Below, piece after piece: positions 3,744 through 21,263 of a stretch of DNA of 51,303 nt. The position numbers were made by a program, and so were the translations under genes. The notes under the pieces were generated by a model, which saw only the letters and a program-made list of their open reading frames with translations, had not been told where the DNA came from and did not search any database. Position 1 is the first letter of the stretch; every line of letters starts with the position of its first letter. The stretch lies in the NCBI GenBank assembly GCA_046331705.1, contig JAXLQJ010000019.1, positions 62,001 to 113,303 on the forward strand, written 5' to 3'. Source of the DNA: a bacterium. Lineage in GTDB: Bacteria > JADJOY01.

Positions 3744-3981
3744 GGCCCGCCCGGGGGCGTCGTCGTTGCGCCCGGTCCGCTGCTCGATCCGTCACCTTGG
3801 GGTGACGACCTGCGGAAGACCGCGATGGGGATGCGGTCGAGTCGTGACTGCCGTGCGGTCGCGCGCCGGCACGTGGTCGATCCGTCCCCTCCGTCTCCAT
3901 CGAAGACCATGCACGGATTCTCGTCCCGTGCTACCAGTGGAAGCGCGTGGAGTGCGCTTCTCGCGGGCCGTTGCGTCCGCC

Positions 3982-3996
3982 TGGCACGCTGCTTGA
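3982..3996 (+). promoter_or_regulatory. Sigma54 (-24/-12)-like promoter
   Basis: TGGCACGCTGCTTGA versus consensus TGGCACG-N4-TTGC; one mismatch at -12; lies upstream of the cytochrome at 4152. Confidence 0.55.
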
Positions 3997-4151
3997 GTGG
4001 TGTTCGCGAGACGCAGCGGCGGCCGCCTCCAGGCGGGCCGGAGAGCGGCGTCGACGAATGGCCACCGGTCGGTGATCGGTAGGCGAGGTAGCTGAACGCG
4101 ATCCCTAGCCACGAGTCGACACTGCGTCGTCTCGGAAGAGGAGGATGGTTC

Positions 4152-4478
4152 ATGCGGCTGCTCGAAAAGGTGGGTCTTGCGATGGTTGTGCTCGCCCTGG
4201 CGGTTCCGACCCTGGCGCGCGCGGATGCCGCGGCCGGGAAGGCGATCTACGACAAGAAATGCGCGAACTGCCACGGCGCGGATGGAAAAGGCGATGCCAA
4301 GATGGAGGCGAAGCTGAAGGCGAAGACGACGCTCGCCGAGATCGGCGGGAAGAGTGACGCCGACATGATGAAGCTGCTCCAGGAAGGCAAGAAGCCGATG
4401 CCCGGCTACGCCAAGAGCCTGAGCCAGGCCGAGCTGGACGACGTCTGGGCGTACACCAAGAGCCTGATCGGGAAGTGA
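4152..4478 (+). CDS. Periplasmic monoheme class I cytochrome c (c6/c553-like), paralog 1
   Basis: Signal peptide ending ARA-D, CANCH, KPMPGY with likely Met distal ligand; Lys-rich; GAGGAGG RBS. Confidence 0.93.
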   Translation: MRLLEKVGLAMVVLALAVPTLARADAAAGKAIYDKKCANCHGADGKGDAKMEAKLKAKTTLAEIGGKSDADMMKLLQEGKKPMPGYAKSLSQAELDDVWAYTKSLIGK

Positions 4479-4492
4479 GCCGCTGTGCTTGC

Positions 4493-4530
4493 CGGCCCGG
4501 GTCGGTCCCCCCAGGGATCGGCTCGGGCCG
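4493..4530 (+). terminator. Stem-loop after cytochrome c gene
   Basis: 17-bp stem with three G-U pairs (cggcccgggtcggtccc / gggatcggctcgggccg), 4-nt loop, weak U tail. Confidence 0.5.
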
Positions 4531-4872
4531 TTGCATTCGTGGCGCACGGGCCTGGCTGGCTCGCGCGTCGCCATGCGCTTTTGCCCGCTCCACGGACACG
4601 CGCTGGGGCTGGCCCGTCGCAGGCAACGAGCGGCAACCCCCGCGCGCGCCGCTTTCGGAATCGGCCCGGCTTGCGGAGTATCGGGCTCGTCGCTCGCGCG
4701 GCGGCGGTGAGATCCGCATGCCGGCGCGGGGTTACGAGCCCCAAACCCCAGATGCTTCGCGTTACCCGAGTGAAACGGCAACTTCTTCCACGCGCACCGA
4801 TCCTACCCGCAGGTGTATACAGAGACGGCGTCGAAGCACGAGTTTTATGCGAGATCGCGGGCGATCTTCGGA

Positions 4873-4887
4873 AGGCACGCCGATTGC
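4873..4887 (+). promoter_or_regulatory. Sigma54 (-24/-12) promoter of the nanowire-like operon
   Basis: AGGCACGCCGATTGC: GG-N10-GC with GGCACG and TTGC intact. Confidence 0.7.
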
Positions 4888-5073
4888 GGTACGCCCCGAC
4901 GTCGAAGGGAGAGCGGTTCCAACGATCAGCCCGCGACCTCTCGCAGCGCACGCGCTGTCATCCTCGGAGACCAAGCCCCGAGCGGGCCGTCGTCTCGCGA
5001 GCGTCGGACGCGAAGCCCGTGTCGAGACGAGTCGGTCGAGCGAGCAAATAGCAGGACCAGGGAGGTTCCAACC

Positions 5074-8000
5074 ATGACGGACCGGCGGACGACCCTTTCC
5101 GCGATGGCACCAAGGCTGGCGGTGCTGACGCTCGTCGCTTGTATGGGACTGGGTCTTGGCAGCGCATTCGCGGCCACCCAGTACCTCGGCGATGGTGCCG
5201 TCCCGAACGGCACCACCGGCGGCTGGGATCTCCCCAAGCAGGGAACCTGCCCTGCCGACCTCACCCAGACGACGCGGCCCGAATGCCTCGCGCTCCGGCT
5301 CAACGTCGTCCAGGCGAGCTGCACGAGTGGCAACAACCTGTCCTGGACGACGAGCGGCGTGTGTAACGACCTCGTCAACAACACGCAGTCGGCGTGCGAA
5401 GCCCAGGACGACCGGCTCTGGAACGCGGCCACCAACACGTGCGCCGTCGTCATGCAGAACGACGATCGCAACAACGTCGAGTGCGCCCTCCACGGCGCCA
5501 CCTGGGTGACCACGGGGACGTGCATCGGCTCGTGGGTGATGCCGGCCCGCAACGACCCCGCCTACGGCTCCGGTCTGCTCACGTCGAACAGCCCAGGAGA
5601 TCAGTGTCTGCGCTGCCACAACGCCACCACCCAGTACAACGGTCCGCGCGTTCGTGACGTCGAGGACACCCTCTACATGGGCCACCGGAACATGGCCCGC
5701 AAGGTGGTCGCCGGTCAGGCGTGGGGCGGCCCGCCGCTGGAATGCGACAACCCGCTCTTCACCTCCGAAGAGGCCTGCGAGGCGAACGGCGGGCACTGGT
5801 ATCCGGTCAGTCCGTATCCCTCGACCGACACCGGCTGGGCGTTCGATTGGGTCAACGGCACGGTGAACGTGAGCGGCATCGACCGCACGCTCTACTGGAT
5901 CTACGGCGACTGGCTGGGACCCCTTCCGCGCGCGATCTACTCGGCGGATCCGGTTGCCGGCACGCCCCTCAAGCCCGGCGTGTCCTACTCCTGCGCACGT
6001 TGTCACACGACTGGATGGTCGAGCGACGCCACGCTGCAGGCCAACCGTGAGCCGGAGCGCTCGTTCCCAGGCATCACCTGGGACGGCGTGACCGACGCCG
6101 TCACCGGTCAGGTGAACCTGGCGGGCGGCGTGAGCGGCGACACCAACAAGATGGCGTCCTGGGATCTCTTCGGCATCGGCTGCACGCGTTGCCACAACTC
6201 GGCAGTCGACACGACCACCAACGGCGGCGTGGCGCCCTTCACGGCGCCCACCGGCATGTCGAGCCACCACAACGCCCTGACCGCGCCAGACAACTCGAGC
6301 GGCGTGTGCACGGATCCACGGTGGACGCTGGAAGCGCAGTGCACCAGCGCCGGCGGGAGCTGGCTGACGGCCTGCAGCACCACCACGGCCGACGTTTGCA
6401 CGCAGGCCATCACCACCTCGGGCGCTTGCACCTCCCCAGGTGTCTGGGTGGCAGCGGCGGCAGGCTGGTGCAGCAACGCGTTCTACAGCGATCAGACGAA
6501 CTGCACGGCCAACGGCTTCTCGTGGCAGGACGGCTGGTGCACGCGGCCCGACAAGAACTCGAGCGCGCTGTGCACGGGCGGCTCGGGTACGTCCGCGTTG
6601 ACCTGGCGGCGGAACGGCTCCCAGGCTTCGTGTCAGGTGGGCGCCGGCACGTGGTCGTTCGCCAAGTGCAGCGTCGAAGGCGTGTGCAACGTCGACAACA
6701 CCATCACCTCGAAAGCGGCGTGCGATCTGGCCGGTGGTCAGTTCGCGTACGCGACCGACATCGTTCGGTGCGTGGACATCGAAGAGGCGGTTCCCAGCTC
6801 GGGCGCCGAGTGGACCGGCACCAACACCAATCGCGGCCAGATCATCACCTCGCTCTGCATGAACTGCCACCGACAGGAGACGTCGGGCCAGCCCTACGCC
6901 AACACGGGCAATGGCGTCGGTAGCGGCAGCACCTCGAACCCGGGTAGCTACGTCAAGGTCGGCCAGTATCACAGCACCATCACGTTCCCGAGCCATCCGC
7001 ACGGGAACATGTTCCTGAACAGCCCGCACGGAAAGTTCACGGGCACGTTCGATCAGATCGGCACCGCGAAGTTCGGTACCGGTTATGGCAGCTACTTCCA
7101 GTTCGACGGCGAGGCCGCCGGAACGGGCAACGGCTGCACGGGTTGCCACAATCCGCACCGCAGCACCGTCGGGGCGGTGGGCGGCGAGGAAGCCTTCGAG
7201 CCCTGCCAGAAGTGCCATACCGGCCCGTACGCGGTCGACCTGAATGCGATCAATCACCTGAAAGGTGCCGGCACGCCATTCGACACCGCGCTCTTCGGCG
7301 AGGGCGAAGCCGAGCCTTGCATCACCTGCCACATGCCTGGCGGGCAGCACATGTTCCGGATCAATCCGGACAAGAACTACTCGACCTTCCCGGCCTCGGT
7401 GTTCAGCTCCGCGACGGTCACCAACGCCAACACGGCGGCCGAAGGCAGCTTCACCAACGCCGTGTGGGTGGACGTCGACGCGGCATGCGGTCAGTGCCAT
7501 GGCGGCGGCAGCAACAAGGCCAGCACCACGCTCACCGTCGCGAACAGCACCGACGCGACCCTGGGCAAGACTCTGACGGTGGCCTCCACCTCCGGTTTCG
7601 CGGTGGGTCAGCGGGTCGAGCTCGCCGGCGCCGGAAGCTACTCGTACGACGATCAGGGCTCGGTTTCGCAGGGCGATTTCCCGTCCTACGTGACGGCGGT
7701 GAATTCCGCCACGTCGCTGACCGTGGTCGGTGCGGCCCCGTTCAGCGTGTCGGCGGGCGCCGCTCTCAAGCAGAACCCGGTCAAGTACGGTGCCCCGTAC
7801 TACACCAAGGCGCAGCTCGCCGCGGTCGCGAAGGGCATGCACGGCTCGTCCGGCGTGGTCTATCCGGTGACGTTCAGCATCACGCCGTCGGGCAGCGGCC
7901 TCACGGTCGCGGTGGACGCCACGGTGAACTGCGGCAACGATCCGTGCCCCGTGCTGACCTACGACTGGGATTGGGGCGATGGCTCGGCCCACGGCACGGT

Positions 8001-8640
8001 CGATCCCGACAGCCACACCTACGCGACGGCTGGCGCCAAGACGATCAAGCTGACCGTCAACCTGATGGGCAAGGTCGCTGGATCCGCGAGCCGCAGCATC
8101 ACGCTCACGGCGATCGATCAGCCGCCGACGGCCGCGGCAACCTGCACCTGGGACGCAAACCTCTGGAAGATGTCGCTCCTCGATGCCTCGACGGACGACA
8201 ACGCCGTGAGCCAAGTGGTGGTCGACTTTGGTGACGGCAGCAACAAGACGATCGCGCCGGCCGGCAGCTCCATCAACCGCACGTACACCAAGCCCGGCAC
8301 GTTCACGGTCACCGACCGTGCGATCGACAGCAAGCTGCAGTCGTCGGTGTACACCTGCCCGACGCAGGCGACCCCGGCGTACTTCAGCATCAGCGGTACG
8401 GTGAAGAACAAGACGGGTGCGACGAACCTGAGCTCGGCGACCGTGCAGCTCTACAACGGCGCGAACATCGTGAAGAGCGTGCTCACGGCGGCGAACGGCA
8501 CGTTCAGCCTCGGCTCGCTCAAGCCGGCGACGTACACCCTGAAGGTGGTGAAGGTCGGCTACACGTTCGCCAGCCCCGCTGCGACCATCACGGTGGGACC
8601 GACGAGCGCTGGAACGGTCATCAACGCCACGAACAAATGA
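5074..8640 (+). CDS. Large secreted octaheme cytochrome c with Cys-rich repeats, two PKD-like domains and a C-terminal carboxypeptidase-regulatory-like beta-sandwich (1188 aa)
   Basis: GGAGG RBS and signal peptide (..SAFA). Eight motifs: CLRCH, CARCH, CTRCH, CMNCH, CTGCH, CQKCH, CITCH, CGQCH. PKD-type YDWDWGDG..HTYATAG and VDFGDG..RTYTKPG. C-terminal ISGTV..ATVQL..TAANGTFSL..TYTL. Confidence 0.9.
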   Translation: MTDRRTTLSAMAPRLAVLTLVACMGLGLGSAFAATQYLGDGAVPNGTTGGWDLPKQGTCPADLTQTTRPECLALRLNVVQASCTSGNNLSWTTSGVCNDLVNNTQSACEAQDDRLWNAATNTCAVVMQNDDRNNVECALHGATWVTTGTCIGSWVMPARNDPAYGSGLLTSNSPGDQCLRCHNATTQYNGPRVRDVEDTLYMGHRNMARKVVAGQAWGGPPLECDNPLFTSEEACEANGGHWYPVSPYPSTDTGWAFDWVNGTVNVSGIDRTLYWIYGDWLGPLPRAIYSADPVAGTPLKPGVSYSCARCHTTGWSSDATLQANREPERSFPGITWDGVTDAVTGQVNLAGGVSGDTNKMASWDLFGIGCTRCHNSAVDTTTNGGVAPFTAPTGMSSHHNALTAPDNSSGVCTDPRWTLEAQCTSAGGSWLTACSTTTADVCTQAITTSGACTSPGVWVAAAAGWCSNAFYSDQTNCTANGFSWQDGWCTRPDKNSSALCTGGSGTSALTWRRNGSQASCQVGAGTWSFAKCSVEGVCNVDNTITSKAACDLAGGQFAYATDIVRCVDIEEAVPSSGAEWTGTNTNRGQIITSLCMNCHRQETSGQPYANTGNGVGSGSTSNPGSYVKVGQYHSTITFPSHPHGNMFLNSPHGKFTGTFDQIGTAKFGTGYGSYFQFDGEAAGTGNGCTGCHNPHRSTVGAVGGEEAFEPCQKCHTGPYAVDLNAINHLKGAGTPFDTALFGEGEAEPCITCHMPGGQHMFRINPDKNYSTFPASVFSSATVTNANTAAEGSFTNAVWVDVDAACGQCHGGGSNKASTTLTVANSTDATLGKTLTVASTSGFAVGQRVELAGAGSYSYDDQGSVSQGDFPSYVTAVNSATSLTVVGAAPFSVSAGAALKQNPVKYGAPYYTKAQLAAVAKGMHGSSGVVYPVTFSITPSGSGLTVAVDATVNCGNDPCPVLTYDWDWGDGSAHGTVDPDSHTYATAGAKTIKLTVNLMGKVAGSASRSITLTAIDQPPTAAATCTWDANLWKMSLLDASTDDNAVSQVVVDFGDGSNKTIAPAGSSINRTYTKPGTFTVTDRAIDSKLQSSVYTCPTQATPAYFSISGTVKNKTGATNLSSATVQLYNGANIVKSVLTAANGTFSLGSLKPATYTLKVVKVGYTFASPAATITVGPTSAGTVINATNK

Positions 8641-8649
8641 CGGAAATTG

Positions 8650-8679
8650 GGATGCAGGCGGGGCGGCCCGCCTGCATCC
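8650..8679 (+). promoter_or_regulatory. Intercistronic perfect hairpin without U-tail (mRNA stabiliser or processing signal?)
   Basis: ggatgcaggcggg-gcgg-cccgcctgcatcc, 13-bp perfect stem. Confidence 0.55.
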
Positions 8680-8758
8680 TCGAGAACACCTCAACCAAGC
8701 TGGAACGGCCAGACCGCGAGCCGAAGACACGAGCGGACGCGCACGGAGGAGCGAAGCA

Positions 8759-9553
8759 ATGAGACGCCACATTCACACCGCGCTGGCTGTCGCCCTGGGG
8801 CTCTTGCTCGCGCAGTCGGCGATGGCCTTCTCTGGATCCTACGTCCCGGGCGCCGGGATCAACGGGACGGTTCACGACCTCGGTACGCCGGGCGCGAACG
8901 GCATGAACTACAGCGCATCGCCGGCGGATTCGCTGAACCGGATCTGCATCTTCTGCCACGCGCCACACAACACGTATCGTCTGAGCACGGCGACGGGCGG
9001 CGCGGGACCGCAGGCTCCGTCGGAGTTCGACTACCTGCCGCTGTGGAACCACACGCTGCAGGACCCGACCGGCTACACGATGTACGAGAACGGGCCGGGC
9101 GCGCCGCAGAGCGGCTCCAAGGCGTCACAGGCGATCTTGAACGGCATGACGCCGGGCAGCACCTCGCTGCTCTGCCTGAGCTGCCACGACGGCACGATCG
9201 CCGTGAACTCGTACGGCAACGCCGATCAGATCAGCCAGTCGACGGGGAACAACGCGATCGTCGACGCCTACGCGATCGGTAAGGACCAGTACCTCGGGAA
9301 CCACCATCCGATCGGCTTCAACTACGACGACGTGCAGGCCGGCGACACCGAGATCCGCAGCGCCGACACCGCGATGCTCACTCCGTCCTCGTTCGTTCGC
9401 GATCACCTGGCGGGCGACGCGCACATGGAATGCGCGACCTGCCACTCGGTGCACAACAAGGGCAACGACGGCGAGCGGCTGCTGTGGAGAAGCGATCAGA
9501 ACAGCGAGCTCTGCTTGACGTGCCACGACAAGGGCAACTACACGGCGCCTTGA
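8759..9553 (+). CDS. omcE: OmcE-like tetraheme cytochrome c (putative cytochrome nanowire subunit)
   Basis: Signal peptide, then HDL, ICIFCHAPHN, PLWN, SLLCLSCHDG, NHHPIGF, MECATCHSVHN and SELCLTCHDK, colinear with Geobacter OmcE as I recall it (HDLS..ICVFCHTPHN..PLWN..CMSCHDG..DHPVNF..ECGSCHKVHD..SKLCLGCH). Confidence 0.85.
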   Translation: MRRHIHTALAVALGLLLAQSAMAFSGSYVPGAGINGTVHDLGTPGANGMNYSASPADSLNRICIFCHAPHNTYRLSTATGGAGPQAPSEFDYLPLWNHTLQDPTGYTMYENGPGAPQSGSKASQAILNGMTPGSTSLLCLSCHDGTIAVNSYGNADQISQSTGNNAIVDAYAIGKDQYLGNHHPIGFNYDDVQAGDTEIRSADTAMLTPSSFVRDHLAGDAHMECATCHSVHNKGNDGERLLWRSDQNSELCLTCHDKGNYTAP

Positions 9554-9587
9554 CGCCCCGCGCCCTCGCGGCGAGCCCTGGTGCACG

Positions 9588-9626
9588 GAGAGGGGAATGG
9601 GATCACCCATTCCCCTCTCGTCTTTT
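9588..9626 (+). terminator. Rho-independent terminator or attenuator after the omcE-like gene
   Basis: gagaggggaatggg-atca-cccattcccctctc, 14-bp perfect stem followed by gtctttt. Confidence 0.75.
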
Positions 9627-9721
9627 GTCTCCGGTGGTTCTCGCGCGCTCGCGTCCTCGAGCTCGGAGGCTGCGCCGCGCGAGCTTTGACGCCGCCTCCG
9701 CCCGGTGGTAAGAGGCGCCAC

Positions 9722-10885
9722 ATGAACGTGCCGACGATGCGCCAATTTCATTCGTTGCGACGCGGGGTTGCGGCGGCGCTGCCGGTGCTCCTCGTGGCAC
9801 TGGTGACGTCGTGCGCGAAGCAGGTCGAGCCCCCTGCCGTGCCCGTCTTCTTCCCGCCGGCGCCAGAGCTGCCGCGCATCCAGTTCCTGGTGTCGCTGAA
9901 CGGGCGCAAGGACGTCGAGGAGCAATCGGCTTTCGATCGCTTCGTGCTCGGCGAGAAGCCCGATCTCAAGGTGGACAAGCCCTACGGGGTCGCCATCCAC
10001 GACGGGAAGATCTACGTCTGTGACACCAACTCCACCGTGTTCGTCTTCGATCTCGACGGCCGGAGCTTCGGGCCGCTCGAGGGGGCGATCGGGCCTGGGC
10101 GGCTTCGGCAGCCGACCAACATCAGCATCGATTCGGACGGCACCAAGTACGTCGCGGATCCGGTGCGCGGCCAGGTCGTGGTGTTCGACGCGGACGACCA
10201 GTACGTCGACGCGTTCGGCACACCCGGCTCCTGGCGTCCGGTGGACGTCGTCCAGCTCGAAGGCCGGCTCTACGTCGCGGACGGCACCAAGCGTCTGGTG
10301 GTCGTGCTCGATGCGAAGACCGGGCAGGTCCTCAAGACCATCGGCGACAAGGGGGATCCGAGCGAGCGTCTCGATCGACCGACGAACCTCGCGTTCGACG
10401 CCGATGGCTATCTCTACGTCACGGATTTCGGGCGCTTTCAGGTGCTGAAGTACGATCGCGACGGGCACTACAAGGCGGCCTTCGGCGGCATCGGAGCGGA
10501 CTTCGGTCACTTCGCGCGGCCGAAGGGGATCGCCCTGGATCGCGCGGGGCGCCTCTATGCCGTCGACGCCTCGTTCAACAACGTCCAGATCTTCAACCCC
10601 GAGGGTCGGCTGCTGCTCTTCTTCGGCGAGAGCGGCGAGGGGCCCGGCGGCTTGCTGCTGCCCGCGAAGGTCGCGATCGACTACGACAACCTGAGCTATT
10701 TCGAGGGTTACCTGGCGCCGGATTTCCGTGCCGAATACCTGATCCTGGCCACCAGTCAGTTTGGCGAACGTCGGGTGAACGTCTTCGCGTACGGGCACGC
10801 GACGGGGAAGAGCTACCCCAGCGACGCCGATGCGTTGAAGCAGATCGAAGAACGGAAGAAGAAGGAGTCGGCTCCACCGAAGTGA
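9722..10885 (+). CDS. NHL-repeat (6-bladed beta-propeller) lipoprotein
   Basis: Lipobox LVTSC; repeated P.[GN][IVL]A.D..G.LYV.D blades. Start could also be 9737. Confidence 0.9.
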   Translation: MNVPTMRQFHSLRRGVAAALPVLLVALVTSCAKQVEPPAVPVFFPPAPELPRIQFLVSLNGRKDVEEQSAFDRFVLGEKPDLKVDKPYGVAIHDGKIYVCDTNSTVFVFDLDGRSFGPLEGAIGPGRLRQPTNISIDSDGTKYVADPVRGQVVVFDADDQYVDAFGTPGSWRPVDVVQLEGRLYVADGTKRLVVVLDAKTGQVLKTIGDKGDPSERLDRPTNLAFDADGYLYVTDFGRFQVLKYDRDGHYKAAFGGIGADFGHFARPKGIALDRAGRLYAVDASFNNVQIFNPEGRLLLFFGESGEGPGGLLLPAKVAIDYDNLSYFEGYLAPDFRAEYLILATSQFGERRVNVFAYGHATGKSYPSDADALKQIEERKKKESAPPK

Positions 10886-10922: not shown

Positions 10923-11459
10923 ATGAAGGCCAGGGCGAGCGCAGCATGGATCCTGTTCGCGATCCTACTGCCGGCGGGGTGTAGCCCGGCCGAGCGTTAC
11001 GACGTCCTCTCGACGTTCTTCGACGGCGTGCCGCTGCCTCCCCCCGAGGAGGGACCGAGCGCTCCGCTGCAAGACTCGGCGCTGATCACCAATCAGCGAG
11101 AGCGGGCCATCCGCGGGACCCACGGCCCGTACGGCGCTCGGATGTGCAACGCCTGTCACGAGTCGATCGCCAACAACAAGCTGGTCGCGCCGCGCGAGAA
11201 GCTCTGCGTCCGCTGCCACGATCTCGAGCTCGATGCGCGTTACGTCCACGGGCCGCTCGCGTCGGGCGGCTGCACCGTGTGCCACGACCCGCACAGCTCG
11301 CGCTACCGGTTCTTGCTGGTGGCGGAGCCCGAGACCTTCTGTCTGCACTGCCACGATCGCGAAGCGGTGGCGCGAGTCGAGGCGCACCACGAAACCGATG
11401 CGCATTGCACCACCTGTCACGATGCGCACAAGTCGAACAAGAAGTTCTTGCTGAAATGA
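10923..11459 (+). CDS. Pentaheme cytochrome c lipoprotein (paired-CXXCH type)
   Basis: Lipobox LPAGC; CNACH, CVRCH, CTVCHDPH, CLHCH, CTTCH. Confidence 0.9.
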   Translation: MKARASAAWILFAILLPAGCSPAERYDVLSTFFDGVPLPPPEEGPSAPLQDSALITNQRERAIRGTHGPYGARMCNACHESIANNKLVAPREKLCVRCHDLELDARYVHGPLASGGCTVCHDPHSSRYRFLLVAEPETFCLHCHDREAVARVEAHHETDAHCTTCHDAHKSNKKFLLK

Positions 11460-13513
11460 GCCCGGTCCACGCCGCGCGCTCGTGGGCGTTCACCACGATT
11501 TGGCTCGTCGCCGCACTATCGCCGGCGGCCGCACGCGCGGATTGGCGCCAATTCGTTCCGACGCCGCGGGACAACGAGGTCTTCCTCGAGACCTTCACGT
11601 CGTTCGAGCGCGATCATTCCACGGGCATTCCCACGCCGATCCTGTGGACCGACACGTTCCTGCGCGAGAAGCTCCGTCTCGACTCCGAAGGCTACTCGTA
11701 CGATCCCCGCTTCCTGCAGTACCGCTTTTCGCTAGGCGTGTTGCTTCGACAGGAGGACTACGAGAACAGCCAGTTCGACGATCTCGATTGGCGATACGGA
11801 GAAGGCGTCGAGTACAACGTGCGTGTGGCGCTCCTGCCCGAGCACCGCTACAACCTCGACCTCTTCGCCACACGCGTCGAGTCGCTCTATCAGCAGCAAT
11901 CGGCGGTTCAGCACGACGACGTCGGTACCAGCTACGGCGGATCCGTGCAGTACCGGGACAAGCCGTATTTCGTCCACGCGGGATTCGTGGACAACACGGT
12001 GGAATCCAGCGGCGCCACGTCGGAGGTCCGCAAGGTGGACACCGACGCGCAGTACTTCAAGCGATTCACCGACGGCAACGAGCTCTCGTTCAGCGGCGCA
12101 TACAACCCGGCGTGGTTCGACGGCACCGGCGGGCTCGATGGACGGTCGGACGAGTATCTGCTCGGCAACTTCATCAACCTGAGCGATGCGCGACTCTCGT
12201 CCGATCTGACCTGGCACACGAGCGAGCAGTCGAGCGACGGCTCCGATCACTTCTCGTACGACCAGTTCCTGTGGGACGAACGCCTCGTCGGCTATCTGCC
12301 GTGGAACTTCCGAACCGAGGCGCGCTTTCGATACCAGGACGACGAGAGTCGCTCGACCTCGCCCGACGAGACCGTGACGCAGGACTATTCGAGTCACGGC
12401 TACGACGTTCGATTCGACCTCATCCATCGACTCTTCCAGAGCCTCGACTCGCGCTACACGCTCATCGACGACCTGCGCGCCTCGCCGGGAGGCCGCTCGA
12501 CGAACCTCTCCAACGGGCTCACCGTCAACTACACGAAGGCGATCCCGTCCGGACGGCTCTTGTTGGGCGGCAACGCGGCGCGCTCCGAGGTGGACAGTCA
12601 GGGCCGCGGCACGGACATCGTCAACGAGCCCCATCGTGGGGTCTCGGTGCCCGTCGACGTCTTCACGCTCGATCAGCAGAACGTCGACGAGCCCTCGATC
12701 CAGGTGTTCTTCCGCTCGCCGCTCGCGCCATTCGAGATCGTCGAGCTCACGCGCAGCGAGCAGTACGCCGTTCGCGCGGTTCCGAACCTCAACACGTTCG
12801 AGATCCAGGTGTTCGCGTTGCCGCCTCGCTTCGCCGTGCCGGGCTCGTACGATTTCTTCGTCTCGTATTCGTTGCTCGTGGGAGATTTCGCGCTGCGCAT
12901 CGACACGCTCGGGAGCACGGCCACACTCGAGCTCTTCGACAATCTGGTCGCGCCCTACGCCGCCTACACGACCCAGCGGTCCGACGTTCTATCGGGGTCG
13001 TTTCCCGGCTACGCGGTCGATTCCTCGATCTACACCGCGGGCGTGCGCGTCACCGTGGGCCCGGTACGCTTGCGTGGTGAGTATCAAGACCTGGAATGGG
13101 ACGTGAACCCGTACGACGCTTGGCGCGCCGAGATCCAATACGTGGACTCGTTCCAGCGTGGGATCAGCCTCTTCGGCTCGGCTTCCTACGTGCGTAAACA
13201 TTATCGGGAGGGCTCGCTCGTCTACGAGCTCAGCGCCTATTCCGAGGACACCGTGTCGGTCACCGGCAACATCCAGAAACGTTTCACGGATCCCGCGATG
13301 GCGATCTCCACGGGCGCCTCGTTCCAGCAGGTGGAAGGGCTGATCGACACCCGCGCGTTCGCCCTCAACGCCGCCTGGAACTGGACGATCGGAAAACTGG
13401 ATTTCGCGCTCGGCGCGAGCGCGTATGGATCGGAGTCGATGACGGGACAGCCGATTCCGCTGCGTCGCGATCACGAGCTCGTCTATCTCCGAGTCACCCG
13501 TCAGCTCTACTGA
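11456..13513 (+). CDS. Large outer-membrane beta-barrel protein (putative cytochrome conduit or secretion porin), 685 aa
   Basis: ATGA overlap with the upstream cytochrome; signal peptide AARA-D; alternating Tyr/Phe/Ser/Thr/Asp beta-strand pattern; C-terminal beta-signal-like YLRVTRQLY. Confidence 0.8.
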   Translation: MSPVHAARSWAFTTIWLVAALSPAAARADWRQFVPTPRDNEVFLETFTSFERDHSTGIPTPILWTDTFLREKLRLDSEGYSYDPRFLQYRFSLGVLLRQEDYENSQFDDLDWRYGEGVEYNVRVALLPEHRYNLDLFATRVESLYQQQSAVQHDDVGTSYGGSVQYRDKPYFVHAGFVDNTVESSGATSEVRKVDTDAQYFKRFTDGNELSFSGAYNPAWFDGTGGLDGRSDEYLLGNFINLSDARLSSDLTWHTSEQSSDGSDHFSYDQFLWDERLVGYLPWNFRTEARFRYQDDESRSTSPDETVTQDYSSHGYDVRFDLIHRLFQSLDSRYTLIDDLRASPGGRSTNLSNGLTVNYTKAIPSGRLLLGGNAARSEVDSQGRGTDIVNEPHRGVSVPVDVFTLDQQNVDEPSIQVFFRSPLAPFEIVELTRSEQYAVRAVPNLNTFEIQVFALPPRFAVPGSYDFFVSYSLLVGDFALRIDTLGSTATLELFDNLVAPYAAYTTQRSDVLSGSFPGYAVDSSIYTAGVRVTVGPVRLRGEYQDLEWDVNPYDAWRAEIQYVDSFQRGISLFGSASYVRKHYREGSLVYELSAYSEDTVSVTGNIQKRFTDPAMAISTGASFQQVEGLIDTRAFALNAAWNWTIGKLDFALGASAYGSESMTGQPIPLRRDHELVYLRVTRQLY

Positions 13514-13525
13514 CCCGGCCACGCC

Positions 13526-14614
13526 ATGACCAACGATTCCGAACCGCGAGATCGCGTGCTCGTTCGCGCGTCGGGAGGTTGGTGCGGTTTTCTGCTGGTG
13601 GCGGGGCTCGCCATCTCGGGTTGCGCTGCGCAGTGGACGCCGCGAACGGCGACGCCCACCGTCGCGCTGCAATGGCCGTACGCACCCGCGCCCCCCAAGG
13701 TGACGTACTTGCACTCGCTCTCCGGGCTCGACCGCGCAGCCGACGTCGGCAGCGTGCTGCGCGCCGTGGCGTTCGGCAGCGAGAGCGAGGATCGCGACGC
13801 CTTCGTGCTGCCGGTCGCGGTCGCGGTGGGCTCGGACGGCCGACTCGCGGTCGCGGACCTGGGGCGGCGCTGCGTTCACCTCTACGTTCCGCTCGAGGGG
13901 CGCTACGTCCGGCTGAACGGCGCGGACGACGACCCGCTGCTCTCGCCGGTGGCGGTTGCGTTCGACGACGCGCAAGGGCTTTTCGTCTCCGATTCGGTCG
14001 GTAAGGTGCTCGCGTTCGGCGCGGACGGGACGTTTCGCTTCGCGCTGCGCAAGGCCGGCGAGCGGGCGCTCGCGCGGCCGACGGGCCTCGCCTACGACCG
14101 TGAGCGGAAGGCGCTCTACGTCGTGGACACGCTCGCCAGCGAGATCGACGTCTTCGAGCAGGACGGGCGCTTCGCGTTCTCGTTCGGATCGCGGGGTGAC
14201 GGCGCTGGCCAGCTCAACTTCCCGACTCATGCCTTCTGCTCGCCGCGCGGCGAGCTCTACGTCACGGACGCGATGAACTTTCGCGTGCAGATCTTCGACC
14301 GGGACGGCAAATGGCTCGGTGGTTTCGGCCGCCACGGCGACGGCTCGGGCGATCTGGCCATGCCGAAAGGCGTGGTCGTGGATCGGGATGGCGTCGTCTA
14401 CGTCGTGGACGGCATCTTCGACAACCTCCAGCTCTTCGATCGCACCGGCCGCTTCCTGCTCACCGTGGGGGCGCGCGGGACCGGTTTCGGCGAGCTCTGG
14501 CTGCCCTCGGGGGCGTTCATCGACGACGAGGACCGGCTCTATGTTTGCGACACGTACAACCGGCGGATCCAGGTGTTCCGGATCACGCGAGACTATGCCG
14601 ATGCGCGTTCGTGA
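13526..14614 (+). CDS. Second NHL-repeat beta-propeller lipoprotein
   Basis: Lipobox ISGC; blades such as NFPT..GELYVTDAMNFRVQIFD and MPKGVVVDRDGVVYVVD. Confidence 0.9.
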   Translation: MTNDSEPRDRVLVRASGGWCGFLLVAGLAISGCAAQWTPRTATPTVALQWPYAPAPPKVTYLHSLSGLDRAADVGSVLRAVAFGSESEDRDAFVLPVAVAVGSDGRLAVADLGRRCVHLYVPLEGRYVRLNGADDDPLLSPVAVAFDDAQGLFVSDSVGKVLAFGADGTFRFALRKAGERALARPTGLAYDRERKALYVVDTLASEIDVFEQDGRFAFSFGSRGDGAGQLNFPTHAFCSPRGELYVTDAMNFRVQIFDRDGKWLGGFGRHGDGSGDLAMPKGVVVDRDGVVYVVDGIFDNLQLFDRTGRFLLTVGARGTGFGELWLPSGAFIDDEDRLYVCDTYNRRIQVFRITRDYADARS

Positions 14615-16469
14615 GCGGCGCTTCGTTCCCCGGCGGCCCACTTGGCTGGCGATCGCCGTGCTGGGCTGGCTCGTGACGAGGGCGGCCAACGCCGGCGCGG
14701 CGACCGACATCGTGAACACGCCGCACAACCTTTCCGTCTCCGGTACCGGCACGGTTCGTGCCCTCACGGAAGACCGAATCTGCGTCTTCTGCCACACCCC
14801 TCACAACGCGGCGCCGCTCTCTCCGTTGTGGAACAAGGAGCTCGGCCCGCGCTTCTACACCGTCTACACGAGCCCGACGATGCACGCTGGCCCGCTGGCG
14901 CAGCCGTCCGGGCCGACCAAGCTCTGCTTGAGCTGTCACGACGGCACCATCGCGATGGGGGCGGTGCTGAACCCGGCCGGCGGCATCGCGATGACCGGGG
15001 GCGGCTTCTTTCCATCGGGCAGCCTGTCGAGCTTCGGGCTCGACCTCTCGGGCCATCACCCGGTGTCGTTCCCGTACTCGGACGCGCTTCCCAATCCCGA
15101 GCTGGCGCCGACGCCACCCGTCGATCTGGTGTTCGGCGGGACCGACGAGGTGCACTGCACCACGTGCCACGACCCGCACGACGACACCTACGGCGCGTTT
15201 CTCGCGAAGGACAATCGTTTCTCGGCGCTGTGCGTGCGCTGTCACGAGTTGCCCGGGTGGAGCACCTCCGCGCACGCCACGTCCACCGCCTCGGTGGTCG
15301 GCATCCTGCCGCGGCCTCCCAAGACGGCCCCGACCTACACCCAGCTCGACGAGTGGGGCTGCGAGTCGTGCCACACGCCGCACTTCGCGCCGACCGCGGA
15401 GCAGTTGCTCCAGTTCACGGCGCTGCCCCCGGAGCCGTTCTCCTGCACCAGCGCCGGTTGTCACAACAGCCAACCTCCGCCGGCGCACGGGCCTTCCACG
15501 GCGAAGCCGATGGCCGACATCGCGGGCCAGGTTCGCAAGCCCTCGGCGCACCACGAGGCCGTCGGCGGAGCGACGGCGAGCGGACGAGGGCGCAATCGAG
15601 GGGGACGCGCGACGAGCGAAGGCGTCGCGTGCAGCGAATGCCACAATCCGCACCTCGCCAGCGCGGGCTCGGCCGAGGCGCCTTACGTGTCGAGTCTGGT
15701 GCGCGGCGTGAGCGGCGTCGATCGCAACGGCGCGACGGTCGAGTCCGCCCGCTTCGAGTACGAGATCTGTTTCAAGTGCCATGCGGATTCGAGCGCGGAC
15801 CGCGCCTTCGTGCCGCGGGTCGTGCCGTCGACGAACCTGCGGCGCGCGTTCGATCTCTCGAATGCCTCGTACCATCCGGTCGCCGGCATCGGAAAGAGCA
15901 AGGACGTGCCGAGCGTGCCGTCGTCCTTCGAGCGCGAGCTGAGCTCCGCGAGCGTCATCTACTGCACCTCGTGTCACGCCGACGACGACGGCGTCTCGAA
16001 CGGCCCCCACGGCTCGACCTTCGCGCCGATCCTCAAGCTTCGCTACGAGACCGCCGACCACACGCCCGAGAGCTTCGAAAGCTACGCGCTCTGCTATCAG
16101 TGTCACGACCGCGAAAGCATCCTGAGCGACGTGAGCTTCCGGAAGAGCGCCGGCGCCGCGTCGGCGCCCGCGCGGCCGATGCTGGGACGCCGGCCGAGTC
16201 GCGTACCGGGAAACGGCGGCGGCCACAGCGGCCATCTCGCTGCCGGAGTGTCGTGCGCGACGTGCCACGATCCTCACGGCGTGCCGGACTCGGGTGTGGT
16301 CGGACCGGCGGGAACCGGCTCGCACACGCACCTCATCAACTTCGACAGCCGCGTGGTGCTGCCGCTCGCTGGCGGCACGAGCCCGATCTTCCAGGACACC
16401 GGAGGCGGATCGGGAACGTGCAGCCTGGTTTGTCATGGAGTGACGCACGAGAACGTTTCGTACCCGTGA
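14601..16469 (+). CDS. Dodecaheme cytochrome c with N-terminal OmcE-like tetraheme domain
   Basis: Signal peptide, then HNLS, ICVFCHTPHN, PLWN, CLSCHDG, HHPVSF, CTTCHDPH, SALCVRCH. Six more CxxCH plus CTSAGCH and CSLVCH. Start 14595 or 14601. Confidence 0.9.
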   Translation: MRVRERRFVPRRPTWLAIAVLGWLVTRAANAGAATDIVNTPHNLSVSGTGTVRALTEDRICVFCHTPHNAAPLSPLWNKELGPRFYTVYTSPTMHAGPLAQPSGPTKLCLSCHDGTIAMGAVLNPAGGIAMTGGGFFPSGSLSSFGLDLSGHHPVSFPYSDALPNPELAPTPPVDLVFGGTDEVHCTTCHDPHDDTYGAFLAKDNRFSALCVRCHELPGWSTSAHATSTASVVGILPRPPKTAPTYTQLDEWGCESCHTPHFAPTAEQLLQFTALPPEPFSCTSAGCHNSQPPPAHGPSTAKPMADIAGQVRKPSAHHEAVGGATASGRGRNRGGRATSEGVACSECHNPHLASAGSAEAPYVSSLVRGVSGVDRNGATVESARFEYEICFKCHADSSADRAFVPRVVPSTNLRRAFDLSNASYHPVAGIGKSKDVPSVPSSFERELSSASVIYCTSCHADDDGVSNGPHGSTFAPILKLRYETADHTPESFESYALCYQCHDRESILSDVSFRKSAGAASAPARPMLGRRPSRVPGNGGGHSGHLAAGVSCATCHDPHGVPDSGVVGPAGTGSHTHLINFDSRVVLPLAGGTSPIFQDTGGGSGTCSLVCHGVTHENVSYP

Positions 16470-16509
16470 GCAGGCGACGATGCGAACCCAGCCGGGACGG
16501 AGGAATCGA

Positions 16510-17829
16510 ATGAGCACGAAGACGCTGACCAAGGGCCTTTGTTTCGTCTCCGTTTGGTTCTCCGCGATCGTGCTCTGGCCCTCTTCGGCAAGCGCCGAGG
16601 ATGGGTGCGTCACGGAGAAATGCCATCCATCCATCCTCAAGGTCAGCAACGAGCACGCGGTCGGAGATACCTGCGACAGCTGCCACGAAGCGGTGGAGAC
16701 GGAGCATCCGCAAAAGGGCAAGAAGACCTTCAAGCTGAGCGAGGAGGAGCCCGAGCTCTGCTACGGGTGTCACGACAAGATGGGCGAGAAGAAATCGGTC
16801 CATTCGCCCGTCGAGCAAGGGATGTGCACCAGCTGTCACAATCCGCACGGATCGAACAACGAGAAGATGCTGACCGATCCGCCCAAGGAGCTCTGCAAGG
16901 GCTGTCACGAGGATCAAACCACGTTCGAGTTCATGCACGGACCGGCGTCCACCGGCGACTGCATGGAGTGCCACGCCCCGCACGAGTCGGACAACGAGCA
17001 TCTCCTGCTCAAGACGGATCGCGAGCTCTGTGTGGGCTGCCACGAAGAGATGGCCGCGATCGATCAGAAGCAGTTCGTTCACTCCGCGCTCGATTCCGGC
17101 TGCACGGCGTGTCACAACCCCCACGGGTCCAAGTTCAAGAAGCTGCTCTCGGCCGACGGCCAAGCGGTGTGCTTCGATTGCCACGACAGCATCGCCGACA
17201 CCGTCAAGGAGGCCGTCGTCCCGCACAAACCGGTGGGAAGCCAGAAGGCTTGCGCGTCCTGCCATTCACCGCATGCCTCCGACAACGAGAGTCTGTTGCT
17301 CGAGCCGCAGAAGGCCTTGTGCCTGAGCTGCCACGACAAGGTCCTCACCAAGGACATGAAGGTGCTGCACGGACCGATCGAGAAGGGCGAATGCGTCGGC
17401 TGCCACAATCCGCACGGATCGCCGAACCGGAAGATCCTCGAGAAGGAGTTCTCCCCCGAGCCGTATCTGCCCTACACCGGCACCGAGTACGCGCTCTGCT
17501 TCTCGTGTCACAAGCGAGACCTGGTGCAGTACGCCGATACCTCGTTCGCCACGAAATTCCGCGACGGTGAGCGCAACCTCCATTACCTGCACGTGAACAA
17601 GGCGGAAAAGGGCCGATCCTGCCGCTTCTGCCACGAGATCCACGGCGGCCCGAATCCGAAGCTGATCGCCGACACCGTGCCGTTCGGTCAGTGGCGATTG
17701 CCGCTCAACTACGTGAAGACCGAGACGGGCGGCGGGTGCACGCCGGGTTGCCACAAAGCGCAGGTCTACGATCGCGACGTGCCGGGACGGAAGCCGCCTG
17801 CGCCGAAGACCCCCGCCAAGGCGGGCTGA
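16510..17829 (+). CDS. Periplasmic 15-heme cytochrome c (tandem paired-CXXCH repeats)
   Basis: GGAGG RBS, signal peptide, 13 CxxCH plus CVTEKCH and CTPGCH; repeating LC..CH / H.P...G.C..CH.PH.S unit. Confidence 0.92.
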   Translation: MSTKTLTKGLCFVSVWFSAIVLWPSSASAEDGCVTEKCHPSILKVSNEHAVGDTCDSCHEAVETEHPQKGKKTFKLSEEEPELCYGCHDKMGEKKSVHSPVEQGMCTSCHNPHGSNNEKMLTDPPKELCKGCHEDQTTFEFMHGPASTGDCMECHAPHESDNEHLLLKTDRELCVGCHEEMAAIDQKQFVHSALDSGCTACHNPHGSKFKKLLSADGQAVCFDCHDSIADTVKEAVVPHKPVGSQKACASCHSPHASDNESLLLEPQKALCLSCHDKVLTKDMKVLHGPIEKGECVGCHNPHGSPNRKILEKEFSPEPYLPYTGTEYALCFSCHKRDLVQYADTSFATKFRDGERNLHYLHVNKAEKGRSCRFCHEIHGGPNPKLIADTVPFGQWRLPLNYVKTETGGGCTPGCHKAQVYDRDVPGRKPPAPKTPAKAG

Positions 17830-18186: not shown

Positions 18187-18972
18187 ATGGCGCAGCGCGA
18201 CTCGGACCCGCCGGGCGAACCCGACGTCCATCGTGGGCCAGAGGCCTCGGAGCCGGAGTTCTCGATCGCGCAGTCGAACGCCCTCGCGCCACTGCTCATT
18301 CTCTTCGGGGTCACGGTCCTCGCGATCCTTCTGTCGATCGTCCGCGCCAAGCCCATCGCCCCACCCGAAGGCGCGCCGGCCGCAAAGGCCTTTTCACCCG
18401 TCGACTTCCCGGCGGTGTTCGCCAAGGACGAAGCCCTCGCCGGGCTGGATACCGGTCCGGGCGGCGAGGCCCGCAAGGAGTATCCGGTTCCGGCGCCGCC
18501 GTTCAGCGAGGACGTGTTCCCGTGCTCGGGCTGCCACGCCGACATGGACACCGATCCGACGCGGCGTGAGTTCAGCGACATCCACTCCGACATCCATTTC
18601 GAGCACGACGCCGAGCACCGCTGGTGCCTGGACTGCCACGACGCGACCGACCGCGACCAGCTCAAGCTGGCCAGCGGCGAGCGATTGCCGTTCACCGAGT
18701 CGTACCGACTCTGCGGCCAATGCCATGGCACCCAGTTCCGCGACTGGAAGGAAGGGATCCACGGCAAGCGGACCGGCTACTGGGATGGACCGAAGCGCTA
18801 CCTCTTGTGCGTGAACTGCCACAACCCGCACAGCCCGCATTTCAAGCCGCTGCAACCGCTGCCTCCCCCGGTCCGCCCCAATTTCCTGCGGCCCGAGGAT
18901 GCAGCGCTCGCGAACGCGGCACCCGGCGCCGGCGCGGCGCGAAGCGCGCCCGAGGAGGCGCCCCATGGCTGA
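18187..18972 (+). CDS. Membrane-anchored tetraheme cytochrome c (CbcS-like subunit of a menaquinol oxidoreductase)
   Basis: One N-terminal TM helix; CSGCH, CLDCH, CGQCH, CVNCHNPH; followed by FeS and NrfD-type genes. Confidence 0.85.
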   Translation: MAQRDSDPPGEPDVHRGPEASEPEFSIAQSNALAPLLILFGVTVLAILLSIVRAKPIAPPEGAPAAKAFSPVDFPAVFAKDEALAGLDTGPGGEARKEYPVPAPPFSEDVFPCSGCHADMDTDPTRREFSDIHSDIHFEHDAEHRWCLDCHDATDRDQLKLASGERLPFTESYRLCGQCHGTQFRDWKEGIHGKRTGYWDGPKRYLLCVNCHNPHSPHFKPLQPLPPPVRPNFLRPEDAALANAAPGAGAARSAPEEAPHG

Positions 18973-19948
18973 TCGTGGGATGGAGCACGACTGCGCGAGC
19001 GCCGCTCTCGAGGCACTCGGCGTGGACTGCGTCGCGTCGGCGGAGAGCGGGCCGACGGATTCGAAGACCCGGCTCGCCAATCGGCGCGATTTCCTGACGG
19101 CCGTCGGATTGGCCGCCGCGGGGTACCTCGCGGGCTGCTCGTCCGAGGCGCGCGAGGAGTTCTTCCGCCAGCGCTTCGTCGAGCTGACGCCCGAAGAGGT
19201 CGCTCGTCGCGTCGAACGCATGCAGGCCGAATATCGAAAGAAATACGGCCCCGACGTGAATCTGTCGTCGGTCCCCGCGAAGCCCGGGGTGCATTTCGGC
19301 TATGCGCTCGATCTGTCGCGTTGCATCGGGTGCCGGCGCTGCGTGTACGCGTGCGTCAAGGAGAACAACCAATCGCGCGATCCGCAGGTGCAATGGATTC
19401 GCGTGCTCGAGATGGAGAAGCGCAAGGGAATCGATTTCGAGAGCGCCAATCCGTACTACGACCACGCCACGGTGCCGGACCCGGACCACTTCTACCTGCC
19501 CGTCGCGTGTCAGCAATGCGAGAACCCGGCGTGCACGCGCGTCTGCCCCGTCGGTGCCACCTGGAACGAGCCGGATGGCATGGTGGTCATCGACTACGAC
19601 TGGTGCATCGGCTGCCGCTGTTGCATGTCGGCGTGCCCGTACGGAGCGCGGCACTACAACTGGGGCGAGCCCACGATTCCACCGAACGAGTTCAACCCGA
19701 ACCTGCACGTGCTGGGCAATCGTCCGCGTCCGCGGGGCGTGGTCGAGAAGTGCACGTTCTGCATCCAGCGGGTCCGCAACGGACGCTATCCGGCCTGTGT
19801 CGAGATCTGCCCGGTGGGCGCGCGCAAGTTCGGCAACCTGCTCGATTCGGACAGCGAAGTGTCGCGGATCCTGCGCGAGAAACGCGTGTTCGTGCTCAAG
19901 GCCGAGCTCAAGACCGATCCCAAGTTCTTCTACTTCTACGGACTCTAG
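18965..19948 (+). CDS. Tat-exported 4Fe-4S dicluster protein (NrfC/DsrO/CbcT family)
   Basis: NRRDFL twin-arginine motif; CIGCRRCVYAC, CQQCENPAC..CP, CIGCRCCMSACP, CTFC..C..CP. Confidence 0.92.
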   Translation: MADRGMEHDCASAALEALGVDCVASAESGPTDSKTRLANRRDFLTAVGLAAAGYLAGCSSEAREEFFRQRFVELTPEEVARRVERMQAEYRKKYGPDVNLSSVPAKPGVHFGYALDLSRCIGCRRCVYACVKENNQSRDPQVQWIRVLEMEKRKGIDFESANPYYDHATVPDPDHFYLPVACQQCENPACTRVCPVGATWNEPDGMVVIDYDWCIGCRCCMSACPYGARHYNWGEPTIPPNEFNPNLHVLGNRPRPRGVVEKCTFCIQRVRNGRYPACVEICPVGARKFGNLLDSDSEVSRILREKRVFVLKAELKTDPKFFYFYGL

Positions 19949-19956
19949 GACGGCAC

Positions 19957-21213: not shown

Positions 21214-21263
21214 TCGGGCCGGCAGCCGGCCTCATCCGACCGTTGCGCGGCTCGATCGCGGTG

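Follow-up and report, generated by a model that had tools for sequence, protein, structure and literature searches.

What does a cytochrome do that has eight heme motifs, carries arrays of cysteine-rich repeats between them, ends in adhesin-like domains, and is encoded directly upstream of the gene for an OmcE-type nanowire subunit? The question was raised by the gene at positions 5074..8640 of a 51,303-nt stretch of bacterial DNA (contig JAXLQJ010000019.1 of assembly GCA_046331705.1, positions 62,001 to 113,303; the whole stretch is called the window hereafter). The best explanation, to which we give about an even chance, is that the octaheme protein is an outer-surface electron-transfer accessory of OmcE-type systems.

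Under this explanation, the octaheme c-type cytochrome would be exported by Sec, would receive heme and form about 12-14 disulfides in the periplasm, and would then be released, already folded, to the cell surface. Electrons would travel along the eight-heme chain between the OmcE-type nanowire, or the outer-membrane conduit, encoded by the neighbouring genes and partners that are insoluble or far away, and the repeat arrays, two PKD domains and a transthyretin-like domain would serve as rigid, protease-resistant and adhesive scaffolding. A first reading of the DNA made from its letters (the original prediction) had proposed an extracellular terminal reductase or adhesin. Its extracellular part has become likely, from the company that the repeat keeps in other proteins and from the PKD and transthyretin-like domains, while adhesion, disulfide formation, export past the outer membrane, and which way and with which partner electrons are exchanged are what we infer. 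Periplasmic folding with hemes and disulfides would need a route for folded proteins; the genome of the window encodes a GspD secretin (above cut-off) and three DsbA-like proteins, and the gene cluster has a barrel of its own, none of them specific to the octaheme protein.

Architecture of the octaheme cytochrome

The octaheme cytochrome gene (5074..8640, on the + strand, as are all window features below unless marked otherwise) opens with an ATG, 8 nt downstream of a GGGAGG motif, and encodes 1188 residues plus a stop codon. All eight CxxCH motifs announced by the original prediction were counted in this open reading frame (ORF). Motif 1 (CLRCH, residues 178-182; 5605..5619) is followed by two invariant ones, motif 2 (CARCH, residues 307-311; 5992..6006) and motif 3 (CTRCH, residues 370-374; 6181..6195), then by motif 4 (CMNCH, residues 595-599; 6856..6870) and by motifs 5-8 (residues 688, 711, 749 and 805; 7135..7500), which form a C-terminal tetraheme module on which Cytochrome_C7 and Paired_CXXCH_1 scored above the Pfam cut-off. 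Several CxxCH motifs were thus found together with a signal peptide for periplasmic maturation, as in multiheme c-type cytochromes. The Sec signal peptide (residues 1-33, ending between AFA and A; 5074..5172) was read from the sequence, and in the AlphaFold2 model it was a helix (residues 8-28) with a low predicted local distance difference test score (pLDDT). A lipoprotein reading of 'LVAC' was rejected because Cys23 is not conserved and its alignment column holds mostly L, A or P.

The protein has 45 cysteines, and 24 non-heme cysteines lie within residues 59-566: eight before heme 1 (59-150), two between hemes 1 and 2 (224 and 235), and 14 between hemes 3 and 4 (412-566), exactly where Cys-rich units had been predicted. 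They make up an N-terminal disulfide-repeat domain (residues 35-165; 5176..5568) with 8 Cys in four helix-plus-hairpin units, a single inserted unit (residues 222-248, C224/C235; 5737..5817; unit hidden Markov model (HMM) E 1.7e-11), and a central array (residues 405-570, 14 Cys; 6286..6783) inserted between hemes 3 and 4. The original estimate of about ten units was fair, as 12 were obtained by cysteine pairs and seven by the unit HMM at a domain E<=1, five of these at E<=1e-7. The strict cysteine pattern that had been proposed matched four times (residues 224, 412, 466 and 538), compared with a mean of 0.0058 in 5000 shuffles, none of which reached four.

The tetraheme module is followed by a small beta-barrel domain (residues ~813-925; 7510..7848) that ends at His923, which is invariant in the family. 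This region had been described as a Ser/Thr-rich beta region; the beta structure was found, whereas Ser and Thr (24 of 111 residues) were about as frequent as in the whole protein (247 of 1188). Beyond it lie two PKD domains (residues 929-1014 and 1015-1103; 7858..8382; Pfam PKD_4, 56.5 bits) and a CarboxypepD_reg or transthyretin-like domain (residues 1104-1188; 8383..8637; Pfam, 39 bits for a cut-off of 32.3). The two PKD domains and beta-sandwich of the original prediction were therefore recovered both by Pfam above cut-off and by fold (Z 10.3-12.4): the PKD folds (930-1014 and 1015-1103) gave Z 10.3 and 11.6, the latter to the PrtV PKD1 domain, and the transthyretin-like sandwich (1104-1188) gave Z 12.4 and 11.8, the latter to carboxypeptidase D domain II.

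No match was obtained in Pfam, NCBIfam or PDB sequences over the N-terminal 670 residues. A Pfam search at E<=10 of the repeat regions and of the beta region (residues 815-929) returned only DUF6931 (E 0.32), and NCBIfam gave no match on the Cys-rich blocks or on this beta region. The architecture was considered unlike that of characterised cytochromes, and indeed no full-length match was found in Pfam, NCBIfam or PDB.

A conserved family of uncultured bacteria

A family search across 5.8 billion clusters yielded 168 homologues at E<=1e-3, most of them full length (about 1100-1350 residues) and 40-57% identical. They were named only 'carboxypeptidase regulatory-like domain-containing protein' or 'PKD domain-containing protein', and originated from metagenome-assembled genomes (MAGs) labelled Acidobacteriota, Thermoanaerobaculia or Deltaproteobacteria. 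Among 92 aligned members, 91 had eight CxxCH motifs, and 19 non-heme Cys positions were kept in 87-92 members. Nine non-motif His (204, 398, 633, 641, 652, 695, 728, 759 and 923) were kept in at least 96% of the aligned members, as were Met207 and Met754. A scan of one genome per species provided 74 loci, all from uncultured bacteria; the carriers were MAGs labelled Acidobacteriota, Binatia or Nitrospirota, plus the window's own phylum. The octaheme proteins are a conserved family known only from uncultured bacteria, and literature searches, made mostly at abstract level, found no description of the family or of its disulfide repeat.

The genome of the window (8.17 Mb, 95.7% complete) encodes one copy of the octaheme gene. 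Its phylum was represented by six genomes (one family, two genera) in a collection of 199,900 species, and an OmcE-like gene was detected at E<=1e-10 in five of the six.

Linkage to OmcE-type gene clusters

The gene directly downstream (8759..9553), predicted to be omcE-like, encodes a 264-residue tetraheme nanowire subunit and proved to be a true OmcE homologue by its matches to PDB chains, namely OmcE of Geobacter sulfurreducens (PDB 7TFS, E 9.5e-17) and of Desulfuromonas soudanensis (PDB 9YUQ, E 1.3e-14). It has four CxxCH motifs, and seven non-motif His were invariant in 22 homologues, enough to include the four further conserved heme-ligand His of an OmcE.

Co-occurrence with omcE-like genes, proposed as a check in the original prediction, was assessed at the 33 of the 74 loci that had a near full-length family gene and enough flanking DNA; four further loci end at the gene. 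The octaheme gene stood directly upstream of omcE, at 34-582 nt, in 21 loci, and omcE lay 1.8 kb downstream in one and upstream within the same cluster in two. An independent sample of 401 Acidobacteriota genomes, evenly drawn, contained a strong OmcE (E<=2e-81) in five genomes, and a family-related gene was found immediately upstream in all five, in one of them (G374) as a partial C-terminal match only. Two more of the 401 genomes had a family gene without a strong OmcE. In four loci (L041, L043, L052 and L070), the position before omcE was occupied by paralogues sharing only residues ~669-1186, that is, the tetraheme module, barrel, PKD and transthyretin-like domains, with different N-terminal halves. 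The recurrence of C-terminal-half paralogues at one position suggests that the C-terminal half is specific to the system and that the N-terminal half is a variable working end. A functional link between the octaheme gene and the omcE-like gene is supported by this synteny.

The minimal OmcE cluster has been described as two multiheme cytochromes, two beta-propeller lipoproteins, OmcE and a large beta-barrel (PMC13712944). The neighbours in the window agree with it, apart from an extra 5-heme lipoprotein. Within the available text of that paper, the six-gene cluster includes no octaheme-like gene, whereas here a gene of 1188 residues heads the cluster, and the five phyla named as having OmcE clusters do not include Acidobacteriota (PMC13712944).

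The nine assessable loci without omcE belonged to Holophagales/Thermoanaerobaculia forms. The transthyretin-like domain was missing in six of these nine, versus at most one of the 24 OmcE-linked loci. At the stand-alone Holophagales-type locus L011, a gene for a DsbA-like thioredoxin lipoprotein with a SurA-like N-domain (Thioredoxin_4, 1.9e-24) stood directly upstream, and at L009 and L022 the same place was taken by an ORF whose N-terminus resembles that of the L011 DsbA-like protein. The surroundings at L011 comprised a divergent TonB-dependent receptor gene (3796-6384, -), the DsbA-like gene (6542-7606, +) and, downstream, a gene for a 9-heme MtrC/MtrF-like cytochrome (11319-13379, +).

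The disulfide repeat within the family

In the AlphaFold2 model, the first Cys of each repeat unit (~23-25 residues) lay on a strand and the second on a short helix, after which came a strand bearing G-G-x-W; the units have the consensus G-x-C-[ST]-[DN]-x-x-[YF]-T-x(4)-C-x(3)-G-G-x-W. Units were homologous across the family by profile-profile comparison (probability up to 97.7%), the N-terminal ones being more diverged (from <1% to 95%). Family members had 3-11 units by the unit HMM, most often six. In 24 of 25 mapped loci the N-terminal domain had either 8 or 10 Cys; the central array had 10-18, always an even number (25 of 25 loci), as expected of disulfide pairs, although these loci are kin and not independent. 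C224 and C235 were both kept in 87 of 92 members and gapped in the other five; since this unit stands alone, any disulfide that it forms has to join these two Cys.

Units were absent from more distant octaheme relatives, which are 820-960 residues long and have hemes 3 and 4 only 27-31 residues apart, compared with 225 here. This indicates that the arrays were inserted into an octaheme scaffold that is older than they are. In two loci (L018:11317-12126 and L044:11228-11938), the central array carried an extra insert of ~80 residues that resembles, by eye, the small beta-barrel at residues 813-925; this would mean domain shuffling within the family.

The disulfide repeat in other proteins

A profile of the central array, searched against 1.84 billion representatives at E<=1e-3, matched only 127 proteins. 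Most of the newly fetched carriers (94 of 113) had no CxxCH motif. Nineteen of these 94, chosen mainly among the top-scoring, were scanned against Pfam; eight had a Pfam family and 11 had none. N_methyl prepilin motifs were detected in P0128 and P0130 (TIGR02532 was also above cut-off), a PilY1 propeller in P0132, TadE plus Calx-beta in P0139, Big_9/cadherin in P0131, CBM_4_9 in P0159 and TrbI in P0135. The cwf21 match of P0127 is probably spurious, and the unit HMM found no repeat unit in that protein.

The unit HMM gave 8-22 units in 11 of 12 tested heme-free carriers, with 12-13 copies each in P0128, P0130 and P0132 and 10 in P0139, and the shared unit of ~23 residues reads G-x-C-S-D-P-x-Y-T-T-x(3)-C-x(3)-G-G-x-W. 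The PilY1-like, prepilin-type and TadE-like filament proteins therefore carry the same unit as the octaheme protein but, unlike it, no hemes. From these sequence matches, the repeat looks like a rare module, absent from Pfam and NCBIfam, of several proteins with exported and filament-associated signatures.

Predicted structure and likeness to known cytochromes

With the family alignment, AlphaFold2 modelled the whole octaheme protein at pLDDT 84.7 and residues 34-928 at pLDDT 87.7 and a predicted template modelling score of 0.86; the model suggests that residues 34-928 form one compact body. Foldseek matched the whole model only to tandem Ig/PKD adhesin-like chains, and gave no match at E<=1e-3 for residues 34-928. 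The beta-barrel, formed by residues ~813-903, aligned in VIA-align to a phage tail-tube protein and to the phage P22 I-domain (Z 8.8 and 8.0). The family profile matched no solved cytochrome in the PDB except, marginally, NrfB (E 0.0075), and residues 35-600 retrieved only generic cytochrome clusters from the ESM Atlas, with scores <=0.78, below the lead threshold.

VIA-align of the heme core against 48,161 chains gave long alignments to MccA and OcwA only, with Z values (5.6 and 5.1) that fall in the common, or noise, range of the tool and are leads only. The best long one was to the octaheme sulfite reductase MccA of Wolinella succinogenes (PDB 4RKM, Z 5.6, root-mean-square deviation (rmsd) 5.0), a periplasmic enzyme that also has eight hemes and that showed no sequence similarity in the PDB profile search at E<=10. 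No full-length match to a characterised periplasmic enzyme was found, MccA aligning weakly over 301 of 895 residues. MccA has its eighth heme bound by a CX15CH motif and has a copper site, whereas the eight motifs of the octaheme protein are all CxxCH; a search of the protein for the variant C-x(3,4)-CH found none, CX15CH itself not being searched for. OcwA of Thermincola potens (PDB 6I5B), described as surface-exposed and multiheme in its PDB title, aligned weakly over the whole heme core (Z 5.1, rmsd 4.5, 292 residues, 19% identity). It has nine hemes, lacks the disulfide-repeat arrays and the PKD/transthyretin tail, and showed no sequence similarity by profile search.

The family Mtrc-MtrF_II-IV_dom (PF22113) scored 29.3 bits on residues 570-819, under its cut-off of 30, and was not listed for the whole protein; three repeat-free relatives (L054, L058 and L048) passed it with 33.7-38.7 bits. 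This weak resemblance of hemes 5-8 to domains II/IV of MtrC/MtrF counts in favour of the surface explanation. Decaheme cytochromes of the MtrC/MtrF/OmcA type, which have a functional surface disulfide, differ in heme number and domain plan and have no tandem disulfide repeats. OmcZ of Geobacter sulfurreducens, also an octaheme cytochrome, is extracellular and is made with an Ig-like extension at the C-terminus, which a dedicated protease cuts off before polymerisation. OmcZ was absent from the matches of the PDB profile search at E<=10 and from the top 50 rows of VIA-align.

Transcription and regulation

A sigma-54-type promoter core, GGCACG-N4-TTGC (4874..4887), is located about 190 nt upstream of the ATG and follows the sigma-54 consensus. 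It was the sole exact match in the window, with 0.2 expected. In 12 of 30 loci the core occurred in the 600 nt that precede the family gene, corresponding to 12 hits in 19.8 kb of upstream DNA versus seven in the other 613 kb on the same strand. A loose pattern allowing two mismatches was not enriched in the window (six matches versus 6.9 by chance), so the weight lies on the exact core and its repeated occurrence before related genes, and a sigma-70 promoter scan of 4400-9700 gave no sites. Rfam returned nothing near the gathering score on window positions 1-22000, and no riboswitch was found upstream. A region of about 1.1 kb just upstream of the core (3750-4870), also free of Rfam matches, had no ORF with the third-position G+C content (>0.80) that marks real genes in the window.

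Near-identical DNA was present in 20 of 24 listed public runs from 12 studies, six of them RNA libraries, sampled from activated sludge, wastewater and digesters. RNA contigs from four libraries of four studies covered most of the octaheme gene. Contig depth was 0 over 4700-4866 in all four runs and about 0 over 9543-9700, and contigs started at 4912, 4930 (adapter-joined) and 4935. Such boundaries speak for RNA over carried-over DNA and are compatible with transcription starting shortly after the sigma-54 core. It is therefore likely that the octaheme gene is transcribed in sludge.

A G+C-rich stem-loop of 16 bp without a T-run (8647..8683) follows the stop codon. The 63-nt stretch 8638-8700 folded with a minimum free energy of -34.2 kcal/mol (z -5.05), and, judged by eye, about 16 of 23 loci have a stem-loop of different sequence in this position. 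RNA contigs ended at 8642 and 8645 in two studies and others restarted at 8660 and 8689, which hints weakly that transcripts end or are processed at the stem-loop; that no listed RNA contig spans 8646-8659 proves nothing by itself. After omcE, a perfect 14-bp hairpin with a T-run (9588..9629) resembles an intrinsic terminator, and this hairpin and the loss of depth past 9543 are what would be expected of a subunit mRNA that stops short of the assembly genes. RNA contig depth was higher on omcE than on the octaheme gene in three of four runs, a measure that cannot rank genes and was not used.

In two other loci, stand-alone family genes were preceded by a gene with a product that starts like the receiver domain of a response regulator (MALVLLVEDEQLL...) and by a one-heme ORF (L014:7763-9151 and L019:4931-6364); L014 also has a sigma-54 core at -150. 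This context may represent a dedicated redox-sensing two-component control.

Function and alternative explanations

Several results weigh against a surface accessory of OmcE systems. The signal peptide shows export to the periplasm only, and the best long fold match, to periplasmic MccA, is about as good as that to surface-exposed OcwA. Alignment of OmcE with the octaheme family by hhalign covered only 21 columns round one heme motif (probability 51.8%). RNA contigs break between the octaheme gene and omcE and so give co-transcription no support. The tie to nanowires is not obligatory, given the nine of 33 loci without omcE, and an OmcE match at E<=1e-3 was obtained in none of five genomes with such loci (completeness unknown), while the query, as a positive control, found the own gene of the window's genome at E 3.7e-145. 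In addition, filament-making OmcE clusters of Desulfuromonadia are described, in the available text of PMC13712944, without an octaheme-like gene. A predicted complex of the OmcE-like protein (residues 24-264, with four hemes) and octaheme residues 610-1188 obtained a score of 0.00 and a mark of 0.32, without controls, and bears neither way on binding.

A more specialised role, which we consider unlikely, is that of tip or initiator of the OmcE filament: the protein would be incorporated first, cap the distal end, extend the heme chain and expose its adhesive repeats to minerals or partner cells. It is equally unlikely, in detail, that in Acidobacteriota, Binatia and allied uncultured phyla the C-terminal tetraheme module docks on the filament end while the N-terminal hemes, set between arrays of a repeat taken over from pilus-tip adhesins, make contact with those minerals or cells. 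Such a role would suit a gene that immediately precedes the major subunit gene (21 of 33 loci, and all five cases in the independent sample), a repeat common to PilY1-domain and prepilin-type proteins, which are parts of other filament systems, and a stem-loop and terminator layout that would allow less octaheme mRNA than omcE mRNA. The transthyretin-like domain tracks OmcE linkage, in loci so closely related that this may be one event. Nine conserved non-motif His for eight hemes possibly leave one spare, but Met207 and Met754 may also be heme ligands, so that the His count proves nothing; spare-His reasoning has been applied to a capping or anchor protein (PMC13712944). According to the authors of the same paper, known OmcE operons encode no tip candidate, and the tip is a published open question (PMC13712944). 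Persistence of the family in genomes without OmcE (none of five had it) argues against an obligatory tip role, as does the building of OmcE filaments by Desulfuromonadia without the gene, as far as PMC13712944 describes them. Profile comparison found no OmcE-like module in the octaheme protein, while the 10-heme cytochrome of the cluster has one.

The protein could instead be a catalytic multiheme enzyme of the MccA, OcwA or octaheme-reductase kind to which the OmcE system only supplies electrons. We regard this as rather improbable, and rather improbable too that it would reduce a soluble substrate (chelated metals, sulfite, nitrite or tetrathionate). The long alignments that the heme core gave, to MccA and OcwA alone, point that way, but with Z values in the common range and no sequence similarity to either protein. 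All eight motifs are canonical CxxCH, unlike the CX15CH site of MccA, and nine His and two Met would suffice as sixth ligand for every heme. We give only a small chance to a protein that remains periplasmic, where it would carry electrons or would help to assemble the nanowire conduit or control its quality. In favour of this, Sec export is the one certain step, periplasmic proteins can also have Ig-like and disulfide-rich domains, and other cytochromes encoded in the cluster are periplasmic. Against this stand the exported nature of other repeat carriers (prepilin-type, PilY1-domain, TadE-like, giant Calx-beta, Big_9 and CBM proteins), a repeat number that varies from 3 to 11 in the family, as expected of an exposed surface, and a PKD-PKD-transthyretin tail resembling adhesins and pilins. 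A similarly small chance is given to a surface cytochrome or matrix adhesin independent of OmcE, whose adjacency to omcE would reflect shared regulation only. The stand-alone genes at nine of 33 loci, near a DsbA-like gene, a TonB-dependent receptor and an MtrC/MtrF-like 9-heme cytochrome, agree with independence, as do the gene's own conserved sigma-54-type core and the stem-loop that separates it from omcE; the gene order, however, is tightly kept across several phyla, with different paralogues in the same position.

Neighbouring genes

Downstream of omcE, the cluster continues with a gene for an NHL propeller lipoprotein (9722-10885), a 5-heme lipoprotein gene (10923-11459; 178 residues), a putative large outer-membrane barrel gene (11456-13513), a second NHL propeller lipoprotein gene (13526-14614), a 10-heme cytochrome gene (14595-16469) and a 13-heme DmsE-like cytochrome gene (16480-17829), and the same order recurs in related loci. 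Both propellers were identified by Pfam NHL/6-bladed propeller matches, and their lipoboxes read LVTSC and AISGC. The putative barrel (685 residues, with a signal peptide and the C-terminus ...QLY) is conserved across loci and matched no Pfam family; the ESM Atlas gave uncharacterised clusters and porin leads (0.84-0.88). The 5-heme lipoprotein gene, which is absent from the description of the minimal cluster in the available text of PMC13712944, ends in ATGA and overlaps the start of the putative barrel gene, which suggests that the small 5-heme cytochrome and the barrel are translationally coupled.

The 10-heme cytochrome starts with an OmcE-like module (14688-14825 and 14898-15248; profile E 2.2e-9 and 1.7e-5) with the motifs NTPHNLS...ICVFCHTPHN...PLWN, and its homologues in several loci matched omcE at 27-34% identity. 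By this resemblance it is a candidate, within the cluster, for the filament 'anchor', which had been sought outside the OmcE cluster (PMC13712944). Further along, positions 18187-21311 encode a 4-heme protein, a 4Fe-4S dicluster protein and an unassigned long ORF, and positions 24150-27601 (-) encode an 11-heme cytochrome fused to a cytochrome b561-type membrane domain plus a 6-heme protein. Multiheme cytochromes are packed unusually densely in the window.

Significance

What is new here is a variant of the outer-surface type of multiheme cytochrome and an enlarged OmcE cluster, both being kinds already known. The disulfide repeat of ~23 residues links cytochromes with PilY1-domain, prepilin-type and giant surface proteins and deserves a family definition of its own. 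Cytochrome nanowires have been structurally solved only as bare polymers, and how they start, end, attach and deliver electrons is the open question spelled out for OmcE (PMC13712944). The octaheme family provides a conserved extra cytochrome heading OmcE clusters in abundant uncultured lineages of soil, sediment and wastewater. Should the protein indeed be the filament tip, cytochrome filaments would have their first known example of a specialised end-piece.

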